IMG/VR virus record: IMGVR_UViG_3300020056_000007
Origin: a virus
DNA length: 64,000 bases
Reading direction: 5' to 3' (one strand)
The first letter of the stretch is position 1. Each line of letters begins with the position of its first letter. The position numbers and the translations under genes were made by a program. The notes beneath the pieces are model-generated. The model saw only the letters and a list, made by a program, of their open reading frames with translations. It searched no databases and was not told where the DNA came from. Shown here one piece after another: positions 21,296-48,157 of this stretch.

Positions 21296-22573
21296 ATGAA
21301 AATTGGCGTAATTCTTGGCCGCGGTGTAGAAGGCGTTGGCCTTACTAAGAATGTAGTAGAATTTCAAAAATTATTTCCAGGCGTAGAAGTATTTGCCACA
21401 ATTGATAAATTGTGGCCACGTATGAATTCTATGAATTTTAAAGTAAATTATTTTCGTGGATCTGATTGGGATACTATTAGTAAGCCTGCTAAAAAATTTC
21501 CCAATTTACTTACCTGTACTCAAGTAATTGATCGTATAAATGAATTAGATGCTTGTATTGTTTGGAGTGTACCTTCAAAATCTCATCCAGAAGATATGGT
21601 TGAAAATTTTATTAATTTACTTGATAAAATTAAAATACGTAAATCATTAGTTCAAGTTGATCATAAAATTCATTCAATTAATCGTAATGCACGATTATCT
21701 GAAATTTGTTCTAAAATGAATGTTCTTATGTGTCATTCAATTGATAATCCATTTGGTCAATGGGTAAAGAAAAATAATATTAAAGTCCCTCTTACTAATA
21801 TGGGTGTAGGATTTAATTTCAATAAAGATTATTGGAAACCAATTGAACAGCAAGATCCTCGTTATATTCGTTGGGTTGGTAGATCTGCCATGTGGAAAGG
21901 TCCAGATCTTATGATTGATTTACACAATGATTGGTTTCGTAAAAGCAATTTCATTACAGTATTAGAAGGTTTAGAAGCATCTATCCAATGGCCACTCATT
22001 GTATATAAAAATCCAAAAGAAATGTCTGATAGACGAGATGTGATTAATTATTTCAGACCTGAAAAAGGTATAGATGAAAATTCTTCTAGAGATCCACAAT
22101 ATGGTACTGAAAAAGAAAACTCAGGCGCTTATCTTTATACATCATATATTCATAGTGAAATGATGGAACGTATGAGTCTTAGCGGGTTTGGTGCAGATTT
22201 GATGAACTTTAAAGAAAATGTATATGGTAATAATGTAGAATATTGTCATACTGATGCATTTGCTGCTGGTGTTATTCCATTATTCCATAAACACTTTTGT
22301 GATAATGTTATACACCGTAAACAAGGAAAACCAATTTCTGAGTGCATAAATACTGGTACGTTGGGTATAGATAAAACTAATGCACGTGATGTATTTCAGA
22401 CAATGATGAATCTTAAAAATGATAATGGACTTAGATCTGATATGCGAGAACAAATGTTTGAATTTTGGAAAGAACATTGCGATGCTGAAATAGTTTATAA
22501 AGACATTCTCGACAAAACACTTAATTTTAACGAGCTTGAAGAAGAAGCTACATTGGAGGAGTTTTTTGCATGA
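21296..22573 (+). CDS. DNA glycosyltransferase, T4 alpha-glucosyltransferase-like
   Basis: N-terminus GRGVEGVGLTK resembles T4 AGT; WVGR..WKG, EY; C-terminal LEEFF clamp-binding motif. Confidence 0.7.
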   Translation: MKIGVILGRGVEGVGLTKNVVEFQKLFPGVEVFATIDKLWPRMNSMNFKVNYFRGSDWDTISKPAKKFPNLLTCTQVIDRINELDACIVWSVPSKSHPEDMVENFINLLDKIKIRKSLVQVDHKIHSINRNARLSEICSKMNVLMCHSIDNPFGQWVKKNNIKVPLTNMGVGFNFNKDYWKPIEQQDPRYIRWVGRSAMWKGPDLMIDLHNDWFRKSNFITVLEGLEASIQWPLIVYKNPKEMSDRRDVINYFRPEKGIDENSSRDPQYGTEKENSGAYLYTSYIHSEMMERMSLSGFGADLMNFKENVYGNNVEYCHTDAFAAGVIPLFHKHFCDNVIHRKQGKPISECINTGTLGIDKTNARDVFQTMMNLKNDNGLRSDMREQMFEFWKEHCDAEIVYKDILDKTLNFNELEEEATLEEFFA

Positions 22574-23322
22574 AAATTGTAATTACTGGATCAAGAGGGT
22601 TTATTGGTTCCCATCTTAAAAATCATTATGAAAACAAACATCAAATTGTTGAATGGGATAGAAGTATTAAAAAAAACATTGAAGATTTTTCTTTGTCATC
22701 TGGTGTTGGTGCAGTAGTTCATTTAGCTGCACTTGCTGATGTAAGAAGAAGTATTGCTGAACCCGATTTATATTGGCAAAATAATGTAATAAATACTAAA
22801 AGAATACAGGATATGTGTGCAATGCATAACGTAAAGTTATTATATGCATCTTCATCATGTATTCACAATTGGAGTTTATCACCGTATGGAACCTCAAAGA
22901 AAGTCAACGAAGCAACAGCTCATCCAGGCCAAGTTGGTCTCCGCTTTACCACTGTTTATGGCGATGGTGCTCGGGATACTATGTTTATGGGCCGGCTTCT
23001 TTCCGGTGATCTTCAGTATAGTACTAACCATATTCGTGATTTTATTCATGTTAGTGATGTTGTCTCAGCGATTGATTCAATTATTTTTTCTGAGCATGAA
23101 CCCAAACATGGCGCTTATGATATTGGGACTGGAAATGGTAATCCTGTATCAGCTCTTGCTAAATTGGCTGGATATGATATTCCCGTAAAAGATGGGGATC
23201 CATGCGAAGCACAGGATAATACTGCAGATATTACACCAATGCAAGAAGAGTTTGGTTGGGAACCAAAGGTTGATGTAAAAAAATATATTATTAATCATCA
23301 ATATGAAGGAACTCCTGTTTAA
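22570..23322 (+). CDS. NAD-dependent sugar epimerase/dehydratase
   Basis: TGSRGFIG, YASSS, YGTSK, RFTTVYG, RDFIHVSD. Confidence 0.88.
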   Translation: MKIVITGSRGFIGSHLKNHYENKHQIVEWDRSIKKNIEDFSLSSGVGAVVHLAALADVRRSIAEPDLYWQNNVINTKRIQDMCAMHNVKLLYASSSCIHNWSLSPYGTSKKVNEATAHPGQVGLRFTTVYGDGARDTMFMGRLLSGDLQYSTNHIRDFIHVSDVVSAIDSIIFSEHEPKHGAYDIGTGNGNPVSALAKLAGYDIPVKDGDPCEAQDNTADITPMQEEFGWEPKVDVKKYIINHQYEGTPV

Positions 23323-24512
23323 TGAATTATGCAAGTATAGTCCCGCTCATTGGTGGTGAGACTATCGCCATGGAGCGGGTCTTTAATAAAAAACCGGAGT
23401 ATATTTTAAGTTATGAACCGTTTCAATCTAATGACGACCATTTGGTCAAATATTACAAATCAGTTCCCTACCATCTTATCGATGATGGTAGGGAACCTGT
23501 GTTTTCTAATGTCGATGTTATTAATACCGTATGTCCTTGTGCTGGTCTTAGCAGTTTATCTACTACAGCTAATTCTGATTCTGCTGCTAACGATTGGATG
23601 CGCACCACAGCTACTTATGTATTGGGTACACTCAAACCTAAAGTATTCTGGGGCGAAAACGCGCCAAGACTTGCTTCTAAAATGGGACAACCGATTGTCG
23701 AAGATCTCAGACAAATTGGGAGAGATAACGGATACACTTTCTCAATATATAAGACGAAGTCTATCCTTCATGGATTAAGTCAAACTCGTGATAGAACTTT
23801 TTATTTTTTCTGGAAAGGTGAAAAAGTACCAAAATTCGAATATATAAAAAGGAAGCACGAGAAAATTGAGGATACGATACGTTCCGTGAAACGAGATCAA
23901 GCTGATCCAATGAACATCCTAACTAATGATCGTGTTCCAACTGAGAATGCTTATTATAAGTATATCCTTCAAGAAATTGAAGGTGGTATGGATCATGCTA
24001 CATTTTCTTCTAAAATAGAAAAATCTACAAACGTATTAGATCATATTGAAAAACATACAACTTATGACAAAGTAGCTAAATGGATGGCTAAAAATGGCTA
24101 TCATAAAGAAGCTGATCGTTGTAATAAAATGTATGATAAATTAAAAGCCGGTTTTAATATTATGAGAAAAAATGTAGAAATTCCAAAAGATTATATTGGA
24201 GCATTTGTAGGACATTATCCAACACAACTTACTCATCCAGATGAAGATCGTTTTCTTACAATTCGTGAATGTATGTCTATTATGAAATTACCTAATGACA
24301 TGATATTACAAGGCGGTAAAAAAAATATAAATCATATTTGTCAAAACGTGCCCGTAACTACTGCTATGGATATGGCAGAGCATGTATTAAAATTTATTGA
24401 TGGTAGATTATCAAATCAAATGATTGATACTGATTATGTAGTTCAATGTAATAAATCTCAAAAAATTCAATATCAGCAAAATAGTTTACAACTCGATGAA
24501 TTTATGGTATAA
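23322..24512 (+). CDS. C5 cytosine DNA methyltransferase-like protein with atypical motif I
   Basis: PCAGLS (IV), GENAP (VI), QTRDR (VIII), RFLTIRE, NVP; motif I reads IVPLIGG; C-terminal LDEF. Confidence 0.75.
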   Translation: MNYASIVPLIGGETIAMERVFNKKPEYILSYEPFQSNDDHLVKYYKSVPYHLIDDGREPVFSNVDVINTVCPCAGLSSLSTTANSDSAANDWMRTTATYVLGTLKPKVFWGENAPRLASKMGQPIVEDLRQIGRDNGYTFSIYKTKSILHGLSQTRDRTFYFFWKGEKVPKFEYIKRKHEKIEDTIRSVKRDQADPMNILTNDRVPTENAYYKYILQEIEGGMDHATFSSKIEKSTNVLDHIEKHTTYDKVAKWMAKNGYHKEADRCNKMYDKLKAGFNIMRKNVEIPKDYIGAFVGHYPTQLTHPDEDRFLTIRECMSIMKLPNDMILQGGKKNINHICQNVPVTTAMDMAEHVLKFIDGRLSNQMIDTDYVVQCNKSQKIQYQQNSLQLDEFMV

Positions 24513-32579: not shown

Positions 32580-32715
32580 GGGGGCGAACTAGGATCGACT
32601 GATGTTTGAGTCTACGAAAAATAACTGCAAACGATAACTTTGCACCTTCAGATTACGCTTTAGCGGCATAATGCTGACGGGTTGGGCACTTACCTTGGAA
32701 CAGAAAAGTGTCACC
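32580..32715 (+). ncRNA. ssrA: Two-piece tmRNA, coding piece; tag ANDNFAPSDYALAA (32627-32671)
   Basis: GGGGGCGAACTAGGATCGAC 5' end, ataact-GCA resume context, tag ending ALAA-stop; 3' end approximate. Confidence 0.92.
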
Positions 32716-32742
32716 ATTAATTTAAATCAAAGGAAGAAAAAT

Positions 32743-33126
32743 ATGAAAAATATTCTTGTAGCAGCTGCCCTTGTTGCAGTAAGCTCACTAGCCGCTAATG
32801 CAAATGAGCTAGGCGGTGGATTCAGTTGGAATTTAGAAACAACAGCTGAACATAACGTAGATACCGAAGTAAGTACATGGACAATCACGCCAGAATTAAA
32901 TTATGACATGATGGGTTTGCTTAATTTAGAAGTATCTTCAAAACTTAATTTGTACGATGGTACAGATTGGGCATGGGATGAAACTACTCATCTTACAGAA
33001 CCAACAATTAATTTTGAAGCTTCAAAAGAAGTTGTAGCAAATGCAGAAATTTATGCTAAAACTGGCTATGACTTCAAAACAGATGATATGACAGATGTCA
33101 CTGTTGGAGTTACTTGGAGCTGGTAA
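32743..33126 (+). CDS. Small outer-membrane beta-barrel protein
   Basis: Signal peptide ending ANA, alternating beta-strand pattern, C-terminal VGVTWSW beta-signal. Confidence 0.7.
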   Translation: MKNILVAAALVAVSSLAANANELGGGFSWNLETTAEHNVDTEVSTWTITPELNYDMMGLLNLEVSSKLNLYDGTDWAWDETTHLTEPTINFEASKEVVANAEIYAKTGYDFKTDDMTDVTVGVTWSW

Positions 33127-33203
33127 TATATAAACTATAGGGTCACTACTTAATAGGTGCGCGGTGGGCCACGGTTAGCCCACCATCATATGCATGGATT
33201 AAT

Positions 33204-34136
33204 ATGAATTATTTTGAATTAAAACCTGAAGAAAACACATTTTCAAATATTGTAATAGATCTTACTCATAGATGTAATATGGAGTGCGCTAATTGTTATA
33301 TCCCAAATAGAGATATTCCAGATCTAAATAAAAATAAACTATATGAGTTTTTATCTAAACTTCCTCATAGAACATATATAAGATTAATTGGTGCTGAACC
33401 AACAATGCGTGATGATTTGCCGGAAATTATATCTACGGTTAAAAAGCTTGGTCATCGCCCAAGTGTAACTACTAATGGATTAAAACTAGCTAGAAGAGAA
33501 TATGTAAAACAACTAAAAAATGCTGGTCTTAGATTATTACTTCATAGTATGAATGGTGCCGATGATGATATGGCATATAAAGAATTGGATAATGGTAATT
33601 GGGCTACAGTTAAAGTAAGAGCATTAGATAATATATTTGCTGAAAGACTACCAATTAATACTGGTACTATTATCGCTCGTGGTGTAAATGAATACATAAT
33701 GAATAGACAAGTAGAAGTGTTTGCTGAAAGAGCAATAAAGTCTGGAATCAATTTTAATACTACTGCTCCATATAATAGAATTACACCAGTTTTAAGAATG
33801 AAATCTGTAGGTGCAATCGGTAGATATATGGAAGGAGTGTCTTATACAATTGATGAATTAATTGAAATGGCAAGTTATAGATTAGGCGTAAATAAATCAG
33901 ATATGATTCAAACATCTGCGGGTGTTGTTAAAGCTGGTCCATCAATGGAGGCTTTAACATCTTGGATGTTTCCATATGAAACAGAAGCTGGTAAAATATT
34001 AATTAGACTTATAGATTGGCAAACTGATGATGATGGTGTTATCGATCATGATAATCCAAATAGAGGTAGACTTACCGAAAATTTTACAGTAGCACCTTTC
34101 TTTGAACATGTTAAAGTAAATGAGAACAATTACTAA
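33204..34136 (+). CDS. Radical SAM enzyme (MoaA-like core)
   Basis: CNMECANC, GAEPT, TTNG. Confidence 0.85.
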   Translation: MNYFELKPEENTFSNIVIDLTHRCNMECANCYIPNRDIPDLNKNKLYEFLSKLPHRTYIRLIGAEPTMRDDLPEIISTVKKLGHRPSVTTNGLKLARREYVKQLKNAGLRLLLHSMNGADDDMAYKELDNGNWATVKVRALDNIFAERLPINTGTIIARGVNEYIMNRQVEVFAERAIKSGINFNTTAPYNRITPVLRMKSVGAIGRYMEGVSYTIDELIEMASYRLGVNKSDMIQTSAGVVKAGPSMEALTSWMFPYETEAGKILIRLIDWQTDDDGVIDHDNPNRGRLTENFTVAPFFEHVKVNENNY

Positions 34137-34626
34137 ATACGATAAACTTTGGTTTTATGCTTTAGATCAAATATTTGAAATGATTGAAAGAATACCAGAT
34201 AACGATTATCTTAAAGAAAATTATTCTATAGATAATCTGCAATCTCATACATGGGAAGCAGTATCATACGATAAAAATCAATTTTCTTCTATACTCCATA
34301 GAGATTTATGGGGTAACAATTGTAGAATTTTAAATAGATTCTATAAAACTCCAGAATCTAGATTCGAAAATTCAAAAGGGAAAATGTCTCAAGCTACTTT
34401 AGAAATGATTGATCAGCAATTAAAAGTTGCACATAAATTAGGATTTGATTGTGCATTTATGAGCAGAGAAAAAAATCATCAAGCATTTAGACACTATGTT
34501 AAACATTTACCACAAGATTGGTATATAGAAAATTCACCTTATCAAATGACAGAAACAAGTTGGCAACATTTAATGTGGACACCAATAAATAGTAACATAT
34601 TAATAATGGAGAATCAAAATGGTTAA
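34120..34626 (+). CDS. Hypothetical protein, possible GNAT-like fold
   Basis: RILNRFY...AHKLGFDCAFMSRE. Confidence 0.4.
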   Translation: MRTITKYDKLWFYALDQIFEMIERIPDNDYLKENYSIDNLQSHTWEAVSYDKNQFSSILHRDLWGNNCRILNRFYKTPESRFENSKGKMSQATLEMIDQQLKVAHKLGFDCAFMSREKNHQAFRHYVKHLPQDWYIENSPYQMTETSWQHLMWTPINSNILIMENQNG

Positions 34627-35434
34627 AGTGATAGAAAATATTAATTATTCTATTGATGGCCCAAAAGTGGTAGAATATCTTGGCGATCATCGCACTGTAA
34701 TTATTAAAAATAAACAACCAGTAGAACCTGAAACTCTTATAAGTTTTTATAAAACACTTGGTAATGTTATTCAACAAAATGACAAAGTTACAGGAACTAT
34801 TGCGACAGGTGAATTGGTTAAAGTTAGGCAAAACGGTTTATTTGCTGGTAAAGAAGATGGCGAATTAGAATGGCATTCAGCTGGAATGAATAGAACTGGT
34901 CATGATGATATCGTAGCAATGTATATGCATCAACCCGCTGAGAGTGGAGGTGATACTTATTTTACTGATCATCAAACTGCTTGGAACGATCTTGATGAAG
35001 AAACAAAAAATATATGTCGCAGCGTAAAATCAAAAACAGTTACATATACATCTAAAATGAAATTAGAAAAAATGCACTATAAAAATGTATTTAGTGATGA
35101 ACAAACTATGATGGAATTTAGAGATATAGATGGAAAAACTAGTTTTGAAAAACAAACACCTCGTAAAGATTTAGTTACAAAACATCCTATTAATAATAAA
35201 GAAGGATTATATTATCCATGGAGTGTTATTAGAGGTTTTACTGGTTTAGATCGTGATCAACAACATTCTTTATATTATAAATTAAAAAGCCATACATTAA
35301 AATCAAAGTATGTTTATACGCATAAATGGGATAAATATGATATTGTTTTAAGCGACCAACATCATAGCTTACATAAACGTGATGCATATACCGGTGATCG
35401 TGAATTATGGAGGGCTGGAATATGCTTGAAATAG
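34619..35434 (+). CDS. TauD/TfdA-family Fe/2OG enzyme with HxA motif
   Basis: WHSAG, GGDTYFTD, HKW...D....LHKR, RELWR. Confidence 0.78.
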   Translation: MVKVIENINYSIDGPKVVEYLGDHRTVIIKNKQPVEPETLISFYKTLGNVIQQNDKVTGTIATGELVKVRQNGLFAGKEDGELEWHSAGMNRTGHDDIVAMYMHQPAESGGDTYFTDHQTAWNDLDEETKNICRSVKSKTVTYTSKMKLEKMHYKNVFSDEQTMMEFRDIDGKTSFEKQTPRKDLVTKHPINNKEGLYYPWSVIRGFTGLDRDQQHSLYYKLKSHTLKSKYVYTHKWDKYDIVLSDQHHSLHKRDAYTGDRELWRAGICLK

Positions 35435-36150
35435 AATATAAAGATTATCATAAATTTAATCTTAAAGAAGAAGTATTATCTAATGGAATAGTTTGTATTA
35501 GAAATGCTGAGTTAACTATGCCTGAATTTGAAAAAATTGCTGAATCATTGGGTAAATTACTTAAAACAAATAAGCATGCTATAAATGAAAAAAGAAATAT
35601 TCAAGAATTAAGTAATAATGAATTATTAAGAGATGGAGATGTTGATTGGCATAATGATTGGTCATATGGTAGAGGAAACTATTTTGGAACAATGCTGTAT
35701 AATGTTAAGAATGCACACTTAAGTCCAACTTGGTTTGTTGATACTAGTAAAGTTCCATATTGGTTAAAGCTGCATTACATCGATTGTACAGGATATTATT
35801 GGTTGCCTCAGAAAAATAATGAAGTATATGCGTTTGGTACTGATTCTGAAATTAATAAATGCTTTACAGATAAACAATTAAAAATTTTAGAAAAGTATGT
35901 ACAGAAAAGATCATTTGTAATGGATCATTTTAAAACAAATGAAGAACTTTTATATTGTAGTCTTGGCACAATTCAAAAAATGGATAATGAAAAAGAATTA
36001 GATACATTTAGAGATTATTGTGAAAATAATAATTATAAACATGAATGGCAAGAAGGTGATATATTATTATGGGATAATTTAAAAATGATTCATAAAAGAG
36101 TAGCTTTCGAAGGAGACCGTATTTTATGGAGGACTCAATTTTCAATATAG
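35407..36150 (+). CDS. TauD/TfdA-family dioxygenase
   Basis: WHND, TWFVD, HEWQEGDILLWDN, IHKR, RILWR. Confidence 0.82.
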   Translation: MEGWNMLEIEYKDYHKFNLKEEVLSNGIVCIRNAELTMPEFEKIAESLGKLLKTNKHAINEKRNIQELSNNELLRDGDVDWHNDWSYGRGNYFGTMLYNVKNAHLSPTWFVDTSKVPYWLKLHYIDCTGYYWLPQKNNEVYAFGTDSEINKCFTDKQLKILEKYVQKRSFVMDHFKTNEELLYCSLGTIQKMDNEKELDTFRDYCENNNYKHEWQEGDILLWDNLKMIHKRVAFEGDRILWRTQFSI

Positions 36151-36569
36151 CTGTTATTAGTTTTCCAAGAACTGCTAGTAAATCATTAGCAGAATGGTAT
36201 GGTAGAAAATATAATAAATCAGTTGCTCTTGGATCTTTACATACACCAGAATATCTAGGTGAAAATTTATATGACACTAAAAAAATAGTGAAAGATAAAA
36301 CAGACATATTGCATGGCCATTGGCATTCTCTTCATAAATTAGATACGGAAACTTTAGGTGATTTATTTCTTAATTATAAAATTGTAACATGTTATAGAAA
36401 AGAAGAATTAGTAAGAGCATCTATATTGAGAGTTACAGGAAAAGATTTATTTGATAAAACAATGCACCAAACATTGAGAGAAAAAGGTCGATGGAAAATA
36501 TGGAAAGAACATATAGTTAACGGAGATCAAGTTGAAACTGTTAAAGGAATACCACACGGCTATTGCTAG
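36126..36569 (+). CDS. Sulfotransferase-like P-loop protein
   Basis: SFPRTASKSL PAPS-loop-like motif. Confidence 0.45.
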   Translation: MEDSIFNIAVISFPRTASKSLAEWYGRKYNKSVALGSLHTPEYLGENLYDTKKIVKDKTDILHGHWHSLHKLDTETLGDLFLNYKIVTCYRKEELVRASILRVTGKDLFDKTMHQTLREKGRWKIWKEHIVNGDQVETVKGIPHGYC

Positions 36570-37170
36570 TGATTATGTTCTTCAATTAAATTATGAAGAA
36601 TATAATTTAAAGAAATTAGAACAATGTTTTTGGAATAAGTATTCTTATAAAGATCCTACGCCAAAAGGTTGGCATAGTCTTCGTGAATTTGATGATATAA
36701 TTCTTAATTGCTTACCTAAAAAATTAATTCCTTATTTAGTTACTAAAGATTTATTTGTATTATATTTTCATAATAAAAGACCTCCACGTCAACTATCAGA
36801 TGGATTAGAACGAACAGTTATTCATCGTGACGGTGGAGACGTTATGAAATGGTATGCTCAAATTAATTTACCAGTTTATAATTGTAATGAAAATAGTAAG
36901 ACTATATTCTGGGACACAGTTGGAGAATATAAAGATTTACCAGGTTTTAAATCTACTATGCTTAAAGAAGGAAATTTAAAGAAATCAATAGAGTTTGCTA
37001 TGACTGATAAACCAGTATTATTTAATAGTCGTAAATATCATTCAGTTGATTTACCTGATTTAAAGGTTGAAAGAGCATCTTTCACTATTAGATTTAAAGA
37101 AGAATATAGTTGGGAAGATGCTAAAAAATTATGTGGAGAATACATTGAAGATACTACATCAGCACCCTAA
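36532..37170 (+). CDS. Fe/2OG oxygenase-like (DSBH) protein
   Basis: IHRD...INLP...YHSV...R. Confidence 0.65.
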   Translation: MKLLKEYHTAIASDYVLQLNYEEYNLKKLEQCFWNKYSYKDPTPKGWHSLREFDDIILNCLPKKLIPYLVTKDLFVLYFHNKRPPRQLSDGLERTVIHRDGGDVMKWYAQINLPVYNCNENSKTIFWDTVGEYKDLPGFKSTMLKEGNLKKSIEFAMTDKPVLFNSRKYHSVDLPDLKVERASFTIRFKEEYSWEDAKKLCGEYIEDTTSAP

Positions 37171-37741
37171 TCATAAATCGCATGATTATGTTGTACCTTT
37201 AAATATTAATATATCAAAAGCAAAAGATGTTTTTTTCAAATATTATAATGAAAAGAAAAAAACATTTTTAAATAGTTTTCCTATGAATGAAGAAGCTTTA
37301 TCTATTTTGCCTGAAGAACTTCATCCATGGATAGAATTAAATCAAATATGGATAGGATATTTTCATAGCAAAAGAAAAACTGGTGCATATATTCCAATTC
37401 ATGTAGATAATCATAGATCAAATGTTAAATATCCATGCAGTATTAATATACCTTTAATTGGATGTTCAGAAAATATTACTACAAGTTTTTGGGAACCAGT
37501 TGGAGAAGTAAGAGGATTAGAAAAACCTAAAGCTGAATGGTATGATTATGGACAATTAAATCATGCATTTGAATTTGCTCTAACAGATACTGCAGTACTA
37601 TATAATAATCAAAAATGGCATAGTGTTTTTAATCCAATGCCTCAAGATCATGAAAGAGCAATTATGATTTTTAAATTTAGTAATGAAGTTCCTCAATGGG
37701 AGGACTGTCGTCAATTAACCCATGCTCTTCACAAAGTTTAA
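37067..37741 (+). CDS. Fe/2OG oxygenase-like protein (paralogue)
   Basis: IHVD...INIP...WHSV...R. Confidence 0.65.
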   Translation: MKEHLSLLDLKKNIVGKMLKNYVENTLKILHQHPNHKSHDYVVPLNINISKAKDVFFKYYNEKKKTFLNSFPMNEEALSILPEELHPWIELNQIWIGYFHSKRKTGAYIPIHVDNHRSNVKYPCSINIPLIGCSENITTSFWEPVGEVRGLEKPKAEWYDYGQLNHAFEFALTDTAVLYNNQKWHSVFNPMPQDHERAIMIFKFSNEVPQWEDCRQLTHALHKV

Positions 37742-38294
37742 TTGCATCTTCCCAACTAATTCCTGGTTTAAATCTCCAGCTTAATCCAATTCTTAAATCA
37801 TCACTATTATTGTCTACGCTATGTGGCCATTCAGTTCGAAACAAAACTGCATGATCTTTCATTACAAAGCTTTCTTTAATTACTAAATCAGATTTATTTA
37901 CTATATCTCTTGCTGGTATATTTAAATAGATATATTCTAAATCTCTATTATCTTCAAAATCCCAAAAATGTGTAACTACTCGTTCATCACAATTTTTAAC
38001 GGGTATATTAATTGAAACAGTATATGTATTTTCTGGTGTATTAGCCTGCCCATCAGCATGAATTGGTATATTATATTTTGGAAATACATTTAACACGAGA
38101 ACCACATCTCTTAAATATTCACTAATTGGACCAATTGTAGATATTAATTTTTTAGAAACTGGAATATGGTTATTCCATTTTTTCATTCGTTTTAGTAAAT
38201 CTAAATCAGCATTTTTTAAAAAATTTTCATTAATATATTCATAATAAAAATCTTTAGGAATATGAAATCCCTTGAGAGGAACTATATATTTCAT
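37677..38294 (-). CDS. Fe/2OG oxygenase-like protein (paralogue)
   Basis: IHAD...INIP...PHSV...R. Confidence 0.65.
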   Translation of the reverse strand: MKYIVPLKGFHIPKDFYYEYINENFLKNADLDLLKRMKKWNNHIPVSKKLISTIGPISEYLRDVVLVLNVFPKYNIPIHADGQANTPENTYTVSINIPVKNCDERVVTHFWDFEDNRDLEYIYLNIPARDIVNKSDLVIKESFVMKDHAVLFRTEWPHSVDNNSDDLRIGLSWRFKPGISWEDAIKLCEEHGLIDDSPPIEELHY

Positions 38295-38745
38295 TTAATT
38301 CTCCAACCGTTTGAGTATAACTCAAACTCAATACAACTCTATTAAATGGACTGAGACTATTATCAACTCGATGAGGTATATCAACTCTCCAACATTTCGC
38401 AGTTTTTAAATCTATTGATTCAATCACTTCATCATTTTTCATATATTGAAACATACTAGTATGATGAACTTTAATTGGTATGTTGATTGCAGTAATTCTT
38501 TGTTTTAATCCAGCTTCTGCAGCTTTATTATCAATATGTGTTTTACACACTGTTTTTGCTGGAACCATAATGATAGATGCATATTCTGGTTTTGGTACAT
38601 TTAAATATGATATTTTGTTTAAGTACTCTTCATTTAATCTAAATGGTCTTATAGACCAGTTTGGCTCTGTAATAACATCGCCGATTTTTAAAATCCATTG
38701 TTTATCATTGGGTTTTAAATTCGTTTTCACTTCAAACCATTTCAT
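38254..38745 (-). CDS. Fe/2OG oxygenase-like protein
   Basis: THID...INIP...IPHRV...RVVLS. Confidence 0.6.
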   Translation of the reverse strand: MKWFEVKTNLKPNDKQWILKIGDVITEPNWSIRPFRLNEEYLNKISYLNVPKPEYASIIMVPAKTVCKTHIDNKAAEAGLKQRITAINIPIKVHHTSMFQYMKNDEVIESIDLKTAKCWRVDIPHRVDNSLSPFNRVVLSLSYTQTVGELNEIYSSSQGISYS

Positions 38746-39196
38746 TAACTAATCCTACAATATGATATCTTAATAATTCTTTTTCTCCATTTAAAGCTGT
38801 ATGTGTTTTAGTTGTATCAACACAATAAGCTCTACCAGCATTTAATCTATAAACTTCATCATTTACTACAAATAAACATTTATCACTTGTAATTAAAGGG
38901 AAATGAATTCTAGGGCTTACATCAGTATGAATAGTATAACATGTTTGAGGATGTAAACACATTAGTCGAGAAGTCGACATATTAAATTTAGCAAAAAGAT
39001 AATTTAAATTTGGTAAATCGAAAGTAGGATCTTTCCCCTTTTGTAAAAAAACATTATTGCTTTTATCAAGGGGCCAATCTTCTTCTATTTTTTTATAACT
39101 GTTAGAAATTTCTGGCGTTAATAAAAATTTTACTTCATTTAAAATTTCATTTAAATTTATTTCACCTAAATCATTCACTATATTCTGTAAAGTCAT
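38732..39196 (-). CDS. Aspartyl/asparaginyl beta-hydroxylase-like oxygenase
   Basis: RLM, IHTD, RIHFPLIT, HTALN, RYHIV. Confidence 0.7.
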   Translation of the reverse strand: MTLQNIVNDLGEINLNEILNEVKFLLTPEISNSYKKIEEDWPLDKSNNVFLQKGKDPTFDLPNLNYLFAKFNMSTSRLMCLHPQTCYTIHTDVSPRIHFPLITSDKCLFVVNDEVYRLNAGRAYCVDTTKTHTALNGEKELLRYHIVGLVNEMV

Positions 39197-39505: not shown

Positions 39506-40270
39506 TTATTCTGCAAATTCTAACTGTGTCATTTCAATATGTAAAATATTTTGTTGACCTTTATATTCTTCCCATTCAAATTTACAAGGGTTAATCTTAA
39601 AATCTTCTATGCCATCTATAAGAGTTGATATAATCTCTTTCTTATTATATATGGTAACAAATTCTTCTACATTATCCCAATACGTATTTCCTTCTTTATT
39701 TAATTTTTCATAAAATTGCGTAGACTGTACAATTTGATTATTAACCAAATACATTGCCATTGGATCTCCAAAAGATTCTTTTATAAGACTATCGCATTTT
39801 CCATATTTTTGTAATCTTTTATGTTGAAAATATTGTAACATGGGAATATTATCAAAAGTAACAAATGATAATAATAATTCAATTTTTTCATAGCTTTTTT
39901 TATAACCAATTAATGAATTAATAATATCCATCATATTTTCTAAAGTAGTATGTGAAAATACACTATAAGCAACTATTCCTTTAATGAAGTATTTCTTTGG
40001 TAATACTGGTGGAAGATCAGCGCCATTTTTATTATATACGGGATTGTACATATTGAACCATGTAAACTCATAATCTGGAAAATTTTCTCTAGCTTTGTGA
40101 ATATTATTAATATCTACATCAATTCCCAAGTAATTACTTGGATCTATTTTAAAGCTCCTAAGTAAATTACCAGTACCACAGCCATAGTCTATGATTTTTT
40201 CTTCAGGTTTACAAGAAGAAATCATTTTCTTTAAGGCATTACTTTTGATTTTGTACTTTTCTGTATGCAT
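39506..40270 (-). CDS. Class I SAM-dependent methyltransferase
   Basis: IIDYGCGTG, YLGIDVD, YSVFSHT. Confidence 0.82.
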   Translation of the reverse strand: MHTEKYKIKSNALKKMISSCKPEEKIIDYGCGTGNLLRSFKIDPSNYLGIDVDINNIHKARENFPDYEFTWFNMYNPVYNKNGADLPPVLPKKYFIKGIVAYSVFSHTTLENMMDIINSLIGYKKSYEKIELLLSFVTFDNIPMLQYFQHKRLQKYGKCDSLIKESFGDPMAMYLVNNQIVQSTQFYEKLNKEGNTYWDNVEEFVTIYNKKEIISTLIDGIEDFKINPCKFEWEEYKGQQNILHIEMTQLEFAE

Positions 40271-42393: not shown

Positions 42394-42867
42394 ATGTCGT
42401 CAACTAAACTCTGGAAAAAGGTAAAAACTATGGATCTAGGAAATCCCGTAATCACCGCTCTCGTTGGACTGGTGATTTTTTACATTGGCCTCAAAACATT
42501 CTCAGGTGGAATGAAGTCAATGGGAAATATGGACCATCTACAATTTTTTTTAGGTAGTCCAATATACATGTTCATTGGAGGAATCGTTATGACTCTCCTT
42601 TGGCAATCATCATCGTTATCAACAACAGCAATTATTGCTTTAGTTGCATCTGGAGCTTTACCACTTCCAGCAGCGGTTGCAGCAGTATTAGGCGCTAACA
42701 TTGGTACGACAGGTACGATATGGTTAGCTGGCTTTTTCGTCTCAGATGGATGGCCGAAAGGTGATACTCTTCGAATAGCCATGGCCCATACGGGCATGAA
42801 CTTATTGATGGCTCTATCGCTATTACCATTTGTAGGATATATAGCTAAATTCCTTGGTAGATTTTAA
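42394..42867 (+). CDS. Miniature Na+/phosphate cotransporter-family protein
   Basis: QSSS and GANIGTT signature motifs; several TM helices. Confidence 0.8.
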   Translation: MSSTKLWKKVKTMDLGNPVITALVGLVIFYIGLKTFSGGMKSMGNMDHLQFFLGSPIYMFIGGIVMTLLWQSSSLSTTAIIALVASGALPLPAAVAAVLGANIGTTGTIWLAGFFVSDGWPKGDTLRIAMAHTGMNLLMALSLLPFVGYIAKFLGRF

Positions 42868-43221: not shown

Positions 43222-44280
43222 ATGGCATATACTTTTTTTCCTAAATCAACTGAGGAAATTCAAAATACGTTAAGCAGCAAAGGATTCCCTCAGCCAAATG
43301 TTGAGGAAGTGAAACGGCTATTTAATTTCTTACGTAATAAAGATAAGTCTCCAATTAATTTAGACTTAGAGAAAAAAACAAACGTAAATGTATCTCGAAC
43401 AATTGATGGCGATTATTCAATTGCTGATATTAAAAGAGGTGCAGACATTAGTATACTCAAGTTAAAATTTGGAAATGGATCTTCAGGTAACCGCGGAGCA
43501 AATAACCGCGGTAATTTATTTGAACCTCAATTTGCTGATGCTTTACTTAAATGGTGGGCAGGCGAAGATGTAACAGATAAAAAAATGCTTGCTGCAATTG
43601 AGGATATGAATAAGACTTATAAGATTGAAGATTCCAAAACATTTAAGGTTGATGTTGTTGGAGGTGAAAATACAAGACGACCATTAGTATTTACTCCAAA
43701 CATTCAACTTACAAATCCGAAAGGACGTGGGTACGATGTTGGTCAGTCTGTTACTGATATTACGGTTACTACGGACAAAGGTCCGATCTTTCTTTCGTTG
43801 AAACTTGGTGGAACTACTACGTTCTTTAATGTTGGTGTAAAAACTATTTTGACTAAAAAAGAAATAGAAAATATGAGTATTACAAATCCAAATGGAAAGA
43901 AGCTTCTTAAACTATTTGGAATTGATGAAACCAAATTTTGTGAAGTCTTTAATGGTACACATAAAGGATCTGTAGATCGTAGACCTAAGTTTGATAAATC
44001 TGGTATGGTAAGACTACTTCAATCTGGAATTGGATTCAATTATCATATTATACATAAACTAACCGGTAAAATTTTATCCAAACAAATGGATGAAAAAGCC
44101 ATGAAACGAGCAGCCACTGTAAATGCTCCAATAATTTATTACGGTGGTAAAGGCGGTAAGGGTAAACGCATTGATATTGAAATGCAATCGCCAACATATA
44201 CATTTAAACTTAATTTAAGAGATACGCAAGGCAAGGATGGTTATCCAACTCGTCTTATGTGTGATTTCAAATATAGGTAA
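43222..44280 (+). CDS. Putative PD-(D/E)xK (restriction-like) nuclease
   Basis: GNLFE...TDITV...FLSLK pattern. Confidence 0.45.
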   Translation: MAYTFFPKSTEEIQNTLSSKGFPQPNVEEVKRLFNFLRNKDKSPINLDLEKKTNVNVSRTIDGDYSIADIKRGADISILKLKFGNGSSGNRGANNRGNLFEPQFADALLKWWAGEDVTDKKMLAAIEDMNKTYKIEDSKTFKVDVVGGENTRRPLVFTPNIQLTNPKGRGYDVGQSVTDITVTTDKGPIFLSLKLGGTTTFFNVGVKTILTKKEIENMSITNPNGKKLLKLFGIDETKFCEVFNGTHKGSVDRRPKFDKSGMVRLLQSGIGFNYHIIHKLTGKILSKQMDEKAMKRAATVNAPIIYYGGKGGKGKRIDIEMQSPTYTFKLNLRDTQGKDGYPTRLMCDFKYR

Positions 44281-44283
44281 ACC

Positions 44284-45060
44284 ATGCCAATACAAAGACA
44301 TTTTGCAAATTCTGATTTAGCCGAAATGGTTGACATTTCTAATGGAATGGTAATTAATACCGATTTCATTCATAAGTTTGGTCGTAATCCAAATATAGGT
44401 GGTGCACCTGAAACTATTTGGATGAACGGTGGAATTTATACATATTTGGATGCTCCTTCTACTGTTTATGTTACAAGTAATAGTGCTGATGATGCTGCTG
44501 CTGGAACTGGAGCAAGAACCGTTACAGTCCAAGGATTAGATAATAATTATGAACAAGTAGAGGAAACGCTAACAGTAGGTGGACCTGTTTCAACAATAGA
44601 ATTTTTAAGAATATTTAGAGCTTTTGTTGAAACGGCAGGATCTATTAAAACAAATGTTGGTAATGTGAAAATTACAACAGGAGCTGGTGGAACTGGAACA
44701 GTATTAGCAGATATTGGCATTATAGGAACTGGAACAACTTTTGGATTGGGCCAAACACAACTTGCTTTATATACAATTCCAGCACATTGTACTGGATATT
44801 TAACACGATGGAATAATGGAGTTGGAGCTTATAACTCTTCAGCAACCATAACACTTCTTACAAGACAAATTGAAGAAGTGACTAAAGCATTTAGAACAAG
44901 AGATATTATGGATGTTCCTGGTGGTTGGCATGTTCGAGATTACGAAATCCCAATTAGGTTACCACCAAAAACAGATGTAGAAATAAGAGCAATTGCCTCG
45001 ACTGGTTCAAATGTTTCTTCATCTTTTGATATAGTATTAGTCACAGGACCAGGACAATGA
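44284..45060 (+). CDS. Probable virion structural protein (beta-rich)
   Basis: Gly/Thr-rich; KFGRNP, GTGART; late operon. Confidence 0.5.
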   Translation: MPIQRHFANSDLAEMVDISNGMVINTDFIHKFGRNPNIGGAPETIWMNGGIYTYLDAPSTVYVTSNSADDAAAGTGARTVTVQGLDNNYEQVEETLTVGGPVSTIEFLRIFRAFVETAGSIKTNVGNVKITTGAGGTGTVLADIGIIGTGTTFGLGQTQLALYTIPAHCTGYLTRWNNGVGAYNSSATITLLTRQIEEVTKAFRTRDIMDVPGGWHVRDYEIPIRLPPKTDVEIRAIASTGSNVSSSFDIVLVTGPGQ

Positions 45061-46280
45061 ATTTCTCAGAGTTTATAACAGAACAAAAGAATACACATAT
45101 GACTCACATAGAGGATAAAGTTATCTATGGTGGAGTCAAAGGAACACGTGATGCAATTCTTGCTTTACGAATGTTGAGAGACACATTAGGTGGTGTGAAA
45201 GATGGAAACGTTACTGTTAAATGGGATGGTGCTCCTGCTATATTTGCTGGTACTGATCCTCGTGACGGAAAGTTTTTTGTCGCCAAAAAAGGTATCTTTA
45301 ACAAAAACCCTAAAGTCTACAAAACTCCTGCTGATGTTGACGCTGATACTTCTGGTGATCTTAATGTTAAACTAAAAGCAGCATTAAAAGAATTGCCTGC
45401 ATTGGGTATTAAAGGAATTATTCAAGGTGATTTCCTTTTTGGACCAGGTGATGTAAAGACACAAAAAATTAAAGGAAAGAAATATGTTACATTTCATCCT
45501 AATACTATCGTCTATGCGTTGCCAGCTGAGTCGGATGGAGCTCGCGATGTTAAGAAATCAAAAATTGGAATCGTCTGGCATACAGCCTATACAGGTAACT
45601 CCTTCGAGTCTCTCAAAGCTTCGTATGGAGTTGATGCCTCTAAGTTGCGACCAAGCCGAAATGTGTGGAGCCAAGACGCAACGCTTAGGGATATGACTCG
45701 CTATACTATGTCTAAAAAAGACACGGAGGAAGTCAATGGTTATTTGTCTCAAGCTGGAAAAATTTTCAATCAAATCAGTGGTACAACTCTTCGCGAATTG
45801 GAAGCTAATCCAAAACTTGCTCAAATGGTGGAAACCTTCAACAACACCTACGTCAGAAGAGGCGAGGTCGTGGGAAATACAACACAGCATACAAATAACC
45901 TTATCAGATGGATCAACCAAAAATTTGACCGTGAGCGAATGGCACGTAAATCGGCACGGGGACAATCAGCCGTTGACCAAAGAAGAGAAGAAATCTTAAA
46001 GTTTTTTAGTCCTGCAAATAAAAAATCACTCATAAAAATGTTTGATTTGCAAAAAGTTATAGTTCTAGCAAAACTAAAAATTATAAATATACTTAATAAA
46101 CTTAATAATGCTAAAACCTTTTTGAAAACAAAAAAAGGTTATCGAATTACAGGCCAAGAAGGTTATGTAGCTATCGATAAACTTGGTGGTGATGCGGTTA
46201 AAATTGTTGACAGAATGGAATTTTCATTTGCCAACTTTAGCCCGAATATATTAAAAGGATGGGATAAACCTGGGAGATAA
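45057..46280 (+). CDS. Probable capsid-targeted protein with ATP-dependent ligase-like motifs
   Basis: N-terminus MNFSEFITE; VKWDG, QGD, EGYV, VKIVDR. Confidence 0.55.
   Translation: MNFSEFITEQKNTHMTHIEDKVIYGGVKGTRDAILALRMLRDTLGGVKDGNVTVKWDGAPAIFAGTDPRDGKFFVAKKGIFNKNPKVYKTPADVDADTSGDLNVKLKAALKELPALGIKGIIQGDFLFGPGDVKTQKIKGKKYVTFHPNTIVYALPAESDGARDVKKSKIGIVWHTAYTGNSFESLKASYGVDASKLRPSRNVWSQDATLRDMTRYTMSKKDTEEVNGYLSQAGKIFNQISGTTLRELEANPKLAQMVETFNNTYVRRGEVVGNTTQHTNNLIRWINQKFDRERMARKSARGQSAVDQRREEILKFFSPANKKSLIKMFDLQKVIVLAKLKIINILNKLNNAKTFLKTKKGYRITGQEGYVAIDKLGGDAVKIVDRMEFSFANFSPNILKGWDKPGR
46082..46089 (+). promoter_or_regulatory. Late promoter
   Basis: TATAAATA. Confidence 0.55.
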
Positions 46281-46283
46281 CAA

Positions 46284-46889
46284 ATGCCAATAGGCTTTAA
46301 AGATTATTTGTCTGTAGATTATAAACCTGGCGCTACAGATCAAGAAAAATATAACGCTAAAAAGCGTAAAAGGTCAGATGTCGAAGAAGCATCAATGAAA
46401 GGCATGTGCTGCAAAAATTGTGGCGATAAGTTTGGTAAACCAACAAATGAAGATTGCCAATATGATGCATATGATCCCAATGGTAAAAATTGGGTAAAAG
46501 AATATTCTGAGAAAACTGAATGTCCAGAATGCAATGGTAAAGGTTGTGATCATTGTGATGGTAAAGGTTTTCATGAAGCATTGAATGTTCAACAAAGACT
46601 ACGCCGTTCAAGAGCAATGAAAAAAATGAAAGCCCGTATCGCAATGGGTAGACGTAGAGCTCAGAAAAAAATGGCTAGCAAAGATAAATTAGTAAAAAGA
46701 TCAAGACGTGCAGCTCGGACGGCCATTCTTAAAAAGCTTACAAAGGATGTACCAAAGGGTGAATTAAATTATGCACGTAGACAAGAGATTGAAAAGCGTT
46801 TAGATAAGATGGGACCTCGTATAGACAGATTAGCTAAAAAAATGTTCCCATCCATTCGCAAAAAGGAAGTGATGAGGAAAAAAGGTTGA
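46284..46889 (+). CDS. Basic probable internal head protein with Cys motifs
   Basis: FKDYL N-terminus, CxxC repeats, Arg/Lys-rich C-terminus. Confidence 0.6.
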   Translation: MPIGFKDYLSVDYKPGATDQEKYNAKKRKRSDVEEASMKGMCCKNCGDKFGKPTNEDCQYDAYDPNGKNWVKEYSEKTECPECNGKGCDHCDGKGFHEALNVQQRLRRSRAMKKMKARIAMGRRRAQKKMASKDKLVKRSRRAARTAILKKLTKDVPKGELNYARRQEIEKRLDKMGPRIDRLAKKMFPSIRKKEVMRKKG

Positions 46890-48157
46890 GCTTTAGTTCA
46901 TTTAAAACATTTTTAGTAGAAGAGGAAAAAACGGCATACTTTACGTTTGGCCGTATGAATCCTCCTACAATTGGTCATGAAAAATTATTAAATAGTTTAT
47001 ATATGAAAGCTGGAAAAAACCCATATCGTGTTTTTTTATCTCAATCAGTTGACCCAAAAAAGAATCCATTACAATATCAAATGAAAGTAAAAAGTGCTAG
47101 GAAAATGTTTCCTAAGTATGCGCGTTCTATTATGTTAAATAAAAAAATAAAGAATGTATTTGATGTAGCAGTACAACTATATAATGAAGGATTTAAAAAT
47201 GTTGTAATGGTAGTAGGATCAGATAGAGTTCGTGAGTTTGAATTATTATTAAATAAATACAATGGTAAAAAAGGTAGACACGGATTTTATAATTTCCAAA
47301 AAGTAAATGTAATGTCTGCAGGAGCAAGAGATCCTGATGCTGAAGGTGTTGAAGGTATGTCAGCATCTAAAATGAGAGCTGCAGCATCATCAAATGACTT
47401 TACTGCATTTTCCCAAGGCCTACCAAAAAGCGTAGCTAATGCTGAAGCAAAAAGAATATTTAATGCTGTTCGTAAAGGCATGGGGTTAAAGGAAGAAAAT
47501 GAATTTAAAAGACATGTTCAACTTAAGCCCGTATCAGAAATTAGAGAAAACTATGTTAATGGCATGCTCTACAATATCGGAGATACAGTTATCAACAAAG
47601 ATACCGGAGAAATCTCAGAAATCAAAAGACTTGGAGCCAACTATGTTATCATTGAAGGTAGTGGAAATACATACCGTAAATGGTTAACAGACATTGAACA
47701 TCTAAAAGAAGAAATTCCTGTAGCTCCATTTTCTGTGGCAAAAGAAGGTCTTTCTGAAGGTACTGACAAATGGTATAAAGATCAACCAGAATGGGGAACA
47801 CCAGAATCAACTAAAAAGGCTGAAAAAATAACTCCAGGCCAAAGTGAAGGTGCTGCATATCATAAAGGTTTATCAAAATCTACTATGGCAAAAAGAAAAG
47901 CTCATTTTAAAAAAGGAGCAAAGATGGATGATGATAACCCCGCAGCATATAAGCCAGCGCCTGGAGATGCTACTGCTAAGACAAAAACTTCAAAGCATAC
48001 AATCAGATTCAGACAGATGTATGGTGAAAAAAATTCTCAAGTTGACATTGCTAAGGCGAGAATTGATAGAGAGAAAGAATCAGATGCTAAAAGGCATGAC
48101 CGAATGATGGATCGAGCAAGAATGCGAGATGTTAAGAAAACCAATAGGGAAAACTAA
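46886..48157 (+). CDS. HxGH nucleotidyltransferase (phage cytidyltransferase) with basic C-terminal extensions
   Basis: FGRMNPPTIGH, VVGSDR, MSASKMR; N-terminus FKTFLVEE. Confidence 0.8.
   Translation: MSFSSFKTFLVEEEKTAYFTFGRMNPPTIGHEKLLNSLYMKAGKNPYRVFLSQSVDPKKNPLQYQMKVKSARKMFPKYARSIMLNKKIKNVFDVAVQLYNEGFKNVVMVVGSDRVREFELLLNKYNGKKGRHGFYNFQKVNVMSAGARDPDAEGVEGMSASKMRAAASSNDFTAFSQGLPKSVANAEAKRIFNAVRKGMGLKEENEFKRHVQLKPVSEIRENYVNGMLYNIGDTVINKDTGEISEIKRLGANYVIIEGSGNTYRKWLTDIEHLKEEIPVAPFSVAKEGLSEGTDKWYKDQPEWGTPESTKKAEKITPGQSEGAAYHKGLSKSTMAKRKAHFKKGAKMDDDNPAAYKPAPGDATAKTKTSKHTIRFRQMYGEKNSQVDIAKARIDREKESDAKRHDRMMDRARMRDVKKTNREN

Follow-up and report, generated by a model that had tools for sequence, protein, structure and literature searches.

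The question raised by this locus is whether a marine phage encodes a halogenase that depends on iron and 2-oxoglutarate (2OG). In a 64,000-nucleotide (nt) stretch of viral DNA (IMG/VR record IMGVR_UViG_3300020056_000007; the whole stretch is called the window below), two TauD-like proteins, Q1 and Q2, are encoded in tandem at positions 34619-36150. A sequence-only reading had pointed out that Q1 carries Ala where Q2 has the Asp of the iron-binding HxD motif, and had proposed a halogenase/hydroxylase pair. We find that Q1 is a TauD-family Fe/2OG protein with Ala at the iron-carboxylate position and with the other Fe/2OG residues intact. Judged by sequence comparison, the resulting two-His site is genuine and under selection across a large marine viral clade, and its gene is part of a conserved tailoring cassette. 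For Q1 acting as a halogenase we give a probability of roughly 40%.

Fold and active site of Q1

The gene and the codons of the residues discussed below are located as follows (positions in the window; lengths in amino acids, aa).

34619..35434, + strand: Q1, TauD-fold Fe(II)/2OG enzyme with H86-S-A88 instead of HxD, 271 aa
34874-34876: codon of H86
34880-34882: codon of A88 (GCT)
34955-34957: codon of T113
35372-35374: codon of H252
35399-35401: codon of R261
35411-35413: codon of R265

The translation contains the motifs E-W-H86-S-A88-G, S-L-H252-K-R and R261-E-L-W-R265 and scores 103 bits (E 3.3e-29) with the Pfam family TauD (PF02668), whose cut-off is 27. The roles of the active-site residues of E. 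coli TauD are established, and hmmalign maps these residues onto Q1 (H99 to H86, D101 to A88, T126 to T113, H255 to H252, R266 to R261 and R270 to R265), the stretch from H86 to T113 being gap-free. Searches of the PDB sequences pair W-H-S-A of Q1 with W-H-T-D of RdpA (phmmer) and H-S-A with W-H-S-D of TfdA-type AAD-2 (family profile). That is, in place of the HxD...H triad of the TauD/TfdA family Q1 has H86-S-A88...H252, and A88 aligns without gaps to the Asp of TfdA, RdpA and TauD, in agreement with the sequence-only reading. Its second observation, i.e., that the distal His and the 2OG-binding Arg are kept, is borne out as well: H252 and R261 align with TauD H255 and R266, and T113 together with R261 matches the TauD residues T126 and R266 that bind the C5-carboxylate of 2OG.

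The fold assignment agrees with this. An AlphaFold2 (AF2) model of Q1, built from 53 sequences, reached a mean predicted local distance difference test (pLDDT) of 89.5 and a predicted template-modelling score (pTM) of 0.88. It superimposes on TauD, PlaO1, AtsK, RdpA/AAD and ScoE/Rv0097 with VIA-align Z values of 21-25 (23-25 over 220-250 residues for TauD, PlaO1, AtsK and RdpA), and Foldseek gives E values of about 1e-16 against TauD-type structures. PHROGs yielded no match for Q1, Q2 or the small neighbouring genes.

Conservation and phylogeny of the HxA clade

A check named with the original proposal was whether homologues keep the altered motif or all have HxD. A search of a 5.8-billion-protein collection returned 95 homologues of Q1, 89 of which are HxA (HSA 57, HCA 20, HNA 12) at identities down to 39%; their database names read 'taurine dioxygenase'. 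When the profile search was run exhaustively over 1.84 billion representatives, 4816 relatives were found, and among the best 150 of these the ligand position is Ala, Asn (very common), Asp, Glu, Cys, His or Gly.

We then consider the maximum-likelihood tree of 214 full-length sequences, which falls into three groups. With 18 HxD proteins as outgroup, an HxA clade (n=95, support 0.997) comprises 92 HxA, two HxE and one HxC protein, with identities to Q1 down to about 33%. Its sister clade (n=101) holds 73 HxN and 21 Asp-bearing proteins and shows many flips between Asn and Asp. Ala is therefore the ancestral and stable state of Q1's clade. The conserved residue is spelled by different codons, i.e., GCT 15, GCA 14 and GCC 5 times over 34 locus copies (duplicate contigs included), and the gene-wide ratio of nonsynonymous to synonymous substitution rates (dN/dS) has a pairwise median of 0.21 over 19 Q1 orthologues. 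A sequencing error or a pseudogene is ruled out by the HxA conservation together with dN/dS.

Within the HxA clade H86, H252, R254, R261 and R265 are conserved to 100% and T113 to 96%. This conservation of the Fe/2OG residues, taken with purifying selection, argues for a working Fe/2OG site in Q1. R265 is conserved equally in the HxD and HxN clades.

With regard to a carboxylate supplied from elsewhere, the acidic positions that the HxA clade keeps offer no apparent substitute ligand, as far as alignment and strand register tell: E82, D117, D241 and D246 are common in the HxD and HxN clades too, and E262 points away from the active site by strand register. A carboxylate relocated to position H+8, which is Asp in many HxN relatives, is out, since the subclade of Q1 is variable there and mostly has Gly. 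Residues specific to the HxA clade are N91, R/K92, M103, Y240 (Gly elsewhere), H249 and W264. The bulkier or polar ones among them (N91, R/K92, M103, Y240, H249) would be compatible with a remodelled pocket.

The more distant HxA members differ in their surroundings. Tandem Q1-like paralogues come directly after the DNA polymerase gene in three related loci, as HNE + HNA in L004 and L005 and as HNA + HNA in L033; the first copies in L004:2235-3987 and L033:4669-6136, HNE versus HNA, constitute a natural Glu/Ala pair. Locus L010 has a lone HxA gene near other radical S-adenosylmethionine (SAM) genes and no Q2 partner. The Ala clade also contains two Glu-bearing proteins, namely P0232 and the HNE protein P0084, whose nearest HNA relative shares 64% identity with it.

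In the sister clade, a large group of viral TauD-fold enzymes (L038-L090), the motif reads H-S/C/Q-N at the carboxylate position. Some of its subgroups have H-S-N-E or H-S-A-E, where the Glu one residue later might be a ligand. An HSN-type enzyme is encoded by the cultured Pelagibacter phage Mosig (L090:4791-5600), in an island that also holds a MoaA-like radical SAM protein, two AspH-like proteins, a fatty-acid desaturase, an aminotransferase, a GNAT protein and a methylase. This Mosig TauD protein (28% identity) was the only hit of Q1 in a tblastn search of a phage collection, i.e., no cultured phage in that collection carries the HxA type. A megablast search with positions 33000-37000 against the phage collection returned no match.

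Q2 and the gene cassette

The genes around Q1 are the following.

33204..34136, + strand: radical SAM enzyme, first cassette gene, 310 aa; CxxxCxxC at residues 24-31, Pfam Radical_SAM 1.4e-14
34120..34626, + strand: GNAT-fold (acyl-CoA N-acyltransferase-like) protein, 168 aa; no Pfam match
35407..36150, + strand: Q2, shorter TauD-family paralogue, 247 aa; triad H82-N-D84...H229, with R238/R242
36126..36569, + strand: P-loop kinase/sulfotransferase-like protein, 147 aa; Atlas lead only

Q2 has the motifs D-W-H82-N-D84, I-H-K-R and R-I-L-W-R and matches Pfam TauD with 79 bits (cut-off 27; 6.7e-22). Its start is probably M6 at 35422, and the database copy (P0096) has 242 aa. The roughly 30% identity to Q1 is confined to the C-terminal 91 residues. 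Among the 108 homologues found for Q2, HxD is invariant in all that cover the motif, which confirms the canonical HxD neighbour (here H-N-D) that had been noted beside Q1.

The four genes are tightly packed. The radical SAM stop overlaps the start of the GNAT-fold gene by 17 nt, the stop of the latter overlaps the Q1 start by 8 nt, and the 5' end of Q2 overlaps the 3' end of Q1. By these overlaps, radical SAM enzyme, GNAT-fold protein, Q1 and Q2 form a putative translationally coupled cassette. Their order recurs in every Tara and IMG/VR locus with a Q1 homologue of at least 52% identity (about 20 loci), and in about 20 loci a radical SAM gene of 48-88% identity lies directly 5' of the Q1 homologue.

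The best NCBIfam partial matches of the radical SAM enzyme are of the TrsS, Tes and MoaA types, all far under their cut-offs. The 168-aa protein is assigned by structure: its AF2 model (pLDDT 92, pTM 0.88) retrieves only GNAT acetyltransferases among the top Foldseek PDB matches (E 2e-6 to 3e-4, TM about 0.5), the structure lead from the Atlas is GNAT as well, and the gene is conserved beside Q1 homologues. It matches the N-acetyltransferase of Mosig weakly (E 5e-4). The 147-aa gene is a frequent but non-universal fifth member, present in about half of the related loci. In the Atlas its product is assigned to sulfotransferase-family clusters by features (0.90-0.91) and to shikimate-kinase and Sulfotransfer_5 models by structure (TM 0.62-0.73).

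An Asn-type counterpart of the cassette exists. The HSN-type genes of L045 and L061 each precede one for a Q2-like partner (44% identity), and these loci also encode two desaturase-like proteins (in L045, fatty-acid-desaturase-like membrane proteins), a radical SAM protein 48% identical to that of the window, an ATP-grasp protein and a PanD-like decarboxylase. The alternative cassette (L045:4695-11423) has a 202-aa open reading frame (ORF) after the radical SAM gene, to which the 168-aa GNAT-fold protein shows no similarity; its composition hints at an amino-acid or lipid-linked product.

Halogenation and alternative explanations

We take Q1 to be an active Fe/2OG enzyme whose iron would be held by two protein ligands only, H86 and H252, with A88 leaving the Asp site open; the likeliest single use of this open site is a halide. 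Cl- or Br- would bind the iron at the vacated site, O2 and 2OG would yield a cis-halo-oxo-Fe(IV) species, and this species would abstract an aliphatic hydrogen before the halogen rebounds onto the carbon radical. The GNAT-fold neighbour and the alignment of R265 with the substrate-anion Arg of TauD point to a substrate that is probably a small molecule with an amine and an acid group, e.g., an amino-acid derivative. The putatively co-transcribed radical SAM enzyme, GNAT-fold protein and Q2 would make or further tailor that molecule. As in the biosynthesis of coronamic acid or of terminal alkynes, halogenation could be cryptic. The fold, the Ala at the ligand position, its deep conservation, that of the Fe/2OG residues and the four-gene cassette are shown here; a truly vacant site, a bound halide and the identities of substrate and product are inferred.

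Several observations favour halogenation. The exchange of the carboxylate for Ala or Gly that distinguishes Fe/2OG halogenases is found, family-wide, in the homologues of Q1. Filtering for HxA/G nominates halogenases and has been validated for nucleotide halogenases (PMC11186838); being accepted as the field's first predictor, the motif counts for this function. We also count the seawater habitat of the host, where halide is plentiful. With the halogenases SyrB2, WelO5, BesD/HalB and AdaV/AdeV Q1 has in common HxA/G, the distal His and the 2OG site. The wider proposal is that the family of about 90 members is a new and independent Fe/2OG halogenase lineage, widespread in marine T4-like phages and without viral precedent for this enzyme type. 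During infection it would chlorinate or brominate an amino-acid-like metabolite assembled by the radical SAM enzyme, the GNAT-fold protein and Q2. This proposal is put forward tentatively, at somewhat below even odds. From the halogenase/hydroxylase pair of the sequence-only reading we retain the conserved HxA/HxD tandem; 'halogenase' stays a proposal, with no known halogenase related in sequence.

A number of results weigh against halogenation. SyrB2, WelO5, BesD and AdaV are all absent from the PDB sequence matches at E<=10, no known halogenase is among the structural matches listed for the Q1 model, and, unlike the known Fe/2OG halogenases, Q1 is not known to be associated with a halogenated product, a carrier protein or a known downstream enzyme. 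The Pfam scan of the island's ORFs of at least 147 aa (a carrier protein would fall among the shorter, unscanned ones) found no gene for a carrier protein, for halide handling or for an enzyme known to act on chlorinated intermediates. The model is least certain around the motif, with pLDDT 65-76 over residues 71-90. A 2026 pipeline paper (PMC13519999) cautions that HxA/G is prone to false positives and that enzymes bearing it may act as hydroxylases. Furthermore, the cassettes of the Asn-type enzymes resemble that of Q1 and include a Q2-like partner and a related radical SAM protein. An iron site of two His and one Gln is present in methylphosphonate synthase, and Asn could plausibly still bind iron via its amide oxygen, leaving no free halide site. 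Because such enzymes, which are not canonical halogenases, fill the equivalent slot, the odds that the Ala type halogenates are lowered; loss of the carboxylate need not imply halide binding in this superclade.

Missing homology by itself does not exclude the function, since halogenases are polyphyletic. To our knowledge the TauD/TfdA group has no characterised halogenase. Q1 would, if it is one, have arisen independently within that group.

The strongest alternative is that Q1 is a non-halogenating two-His oxygenase, in which a water held by the second sphere takes the carboxylate site and the enzyme hydroxylates, desaturates or otherwise oxidises; loss of the carboxylate would tune reactivity or avoid a clash with a charged substrate. 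Human AspH provides a natural precedent: it has two protein ligands to iron, like the predicted site of Q1, with water at the carboxylate position, and it hydroxylates and does not halogenate even with a pseudohalide bound (PMC13168262). AspH differs in being a protein hydroxylase of family PF05118, and a second-sphere Asp holds its water. The only family that Q1 matches is TauD, and the PF05118 member of the island is a separate gene (38732-39196, - strand). The looseness of the ligand position in the superclade (A, N, D, E, C, H or G), the Asn-type relatives, probably without a free halide site, in equivalent cassettes and the Glu-bearing P0084 and P0232 within the Ala clade fit such an oxygenase. 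It is harder to reconcile with the strict retention of Ala (92/95), where a simply missing ligand might leave the position free to drift to Gly, Ser or Asn. With the exception of AspH, the natural HxA/G enzymes that are known to us as characterised are halogenases, a set affected by ascertainment bias. Taken together, we regard a non-halogenating oxygenase as somewhat less likely than a halogenase, and as the best of the alternatives.

Clearly less probable is that the substrate itself fills the open site, or that another small anion does so. A carboxylate, sulfate, sulfonate, phosphate or thiolate of the substrate would then complete the triad and orient the molecule for an unusual oxidation. 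Substrates of TauD-family enzymes are typically anionic, and R265 aligns with the sulfonate-binding R270 of TauD; this Arg is, however, just as conserved in the HxD and HxN clades. Likewise, a sulfotransferase/kinase-like gene directly follows the Q1-Q2 pair and an APS-kinase-like gene (APS, adenosine 5'-phosphosulfate) is found nearby in related phages, but the sulfotransferase assignment is an Atlas lead only.

A non-catalytic or regulatory role of Q1 as partner of Q2, e.g., as a heteromer subunit that binds substrate or 2OG without turnover, would suit the oligomeric nature of TauD-family enzymes and the constantly adjacent, overlapping genes wherever Q1 identity is at least 52%, but it is improbable given the 96-100% conservation of both His and of the 2OG-binding Thr and Arg, unexpected for a dead subunit, and given deep HxA members that lack Q2 (L010) or are paired with a Q1-like paralogue (L004, L033).

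Comparison with TauD-type enzymes and viral halogenases

Q1 has the fold, motif spacing, distal His, 2OG-binding Thr/Arg and substrate-anion Arg of TfdA/AAD-2, RdpA, TauD and AtsK. It differs from them in having Ala for the Asp ligand, in an identity of only 13-21%, and in belonging to a marine, largely viral clade with conserved residues of its own.

Marine-phage halogenation as such has a precedent. VirX1 is reported to be a flavin-dependent halogenase from a cyanophage (Gkotsi et al. 2019); its electrophilic halogenation of aromatics and its fold are unrelated to the chemistry and fold of Q1. The known phage halogenases, such as VirX1 and PrnA-like enzymes, are flavin-dependent. Our literature search found no paper that pairs a ketoglutarate-dependent halogenase with a phage, and none that describes the Q1 family.

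In a virome survey (Kieft et al., preprint 10.1101/2021.01.05.425418) viral tauD is treated as a sulfite-releasing auxiliary gene, with a residue check limited to 'WH and H'. These genes share the Pfam family and the type of viral contig with Q1. Such surveys assume sulfite release from taurine, but in Q1 the Asp ligand is missing and the gene context is a tailoring cassette. We consider the taurine dioxygenase label very unlikely to be right for Q1, and on these two grounds a taurine dioxygenase proper was rejected as a candidate.

Implications

Should Q1 halogenate, radical C-H halogenation chemistry would be carried by abundant ocean phages, and Q1 could be the first viral Fe/2OG halogenase. 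This would give biocatalysis a new scaffold that comes with Ala/Glu sister enzymes from nature for comparison, and would point to a halogenated or cryptically halogenated metabolite in infected cells. Two consequences hold whatever Q1 does. First, the survey labels 'tauD' and 'taurine dioxygenase' on viral genes are at least partly mis-assigned. Second, in a large marine clade of TauD fold the carboxylate ligand, otherwise taken to be invariant, varies between Ala, Asn, Asp, Glu and Cys, which bears on how the first coordination sphere controls Fe/2OG reactivity.

Genomic island and virus

The window encodes a gp43-type DNA polymerase, an SbcC-like nuclease, a DnaB-like helicase and a ribonucleotide reductase. 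Its polymerase is 55% identical to that of the uncultured phage C48C1 and about 47% identical to those of cyanomyoviruses. The window is that of a marine T4-like myovirus, so that the marine phage setting, initially proposed as probable, is supported by the gene set and by the polymerase identities.

The island lies between DUF3310 and DUF932 genes. Beyond the cassette it contains these genes.

36532-37170, + strand: cupin/AspH-like putative 2OG oxygenase, paralogue 1
37067-37741, + strand: cupin/AspH-like putative 2OG oxygenase, paralogue 2
37677-38294, - strand: cupin/AspH-like putative 2OG oxygenase, paralogue 3
38254-38745, - strand: cupin/AspH-like putative 2OG oxygenase, paralogue 4
38732-39196, - strand: cupin/AspH-like putative 2OG oxygenase, paralogue 5
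39506..40270, - strand: SAM-dependent methyltransferase at the far island end (Pfam Methyltransf_12/23/25)

All five paralogues show an HxD...H pattern in their translations. Only the fifth reaches the Pfam family Asp_Arg_Hydrox (1.4e-9); the other four cross-match each other and related loci in tblastn. The five are convergent after the cassette, and their number and order vary across related phages, i.e., they form a variable part of the island. A homologue of the methyltransferase is present in L001-L003 and L015. The promoter/terminator scan of the island gave no useful signal over shuffled background.

Positions 32671-33126 (+ strand) encode a 151-aa protein whose N-terminus is signal-peptide-like and which weakly matches an outer-membrane beta-barrel family (PF13505, E 0.003); several related phages keep this gene just 5' of the one for the radical SAM enzyme, and it is also found in HSN-type phages.

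Outside the island, a 157-aa ORF at 42394-42867 (+ strand) matches the Na+/Pi cotransporter family (PF02690, 4.5e-15) and may represent an auxiliary gene for phosphate uptake, either whole or in part. An alpha-glucosyltransferase-like gene (phrog_2888) close to a DNA-methyltransferase-like gene (21296-24512, + strand) suggests modification of the phage DNA. Finally, the window has cytidylyltransferase-like genes at 43222-48157 (+ strand), and related loci (L001:13531-15847) encode KdsA-like, CMP-sugar (cytidine monophosphate) synthetase-like, epimerase and APS-kinase-like genes; together these suggest phage-encoded activation of sugar or sulfur near the island.

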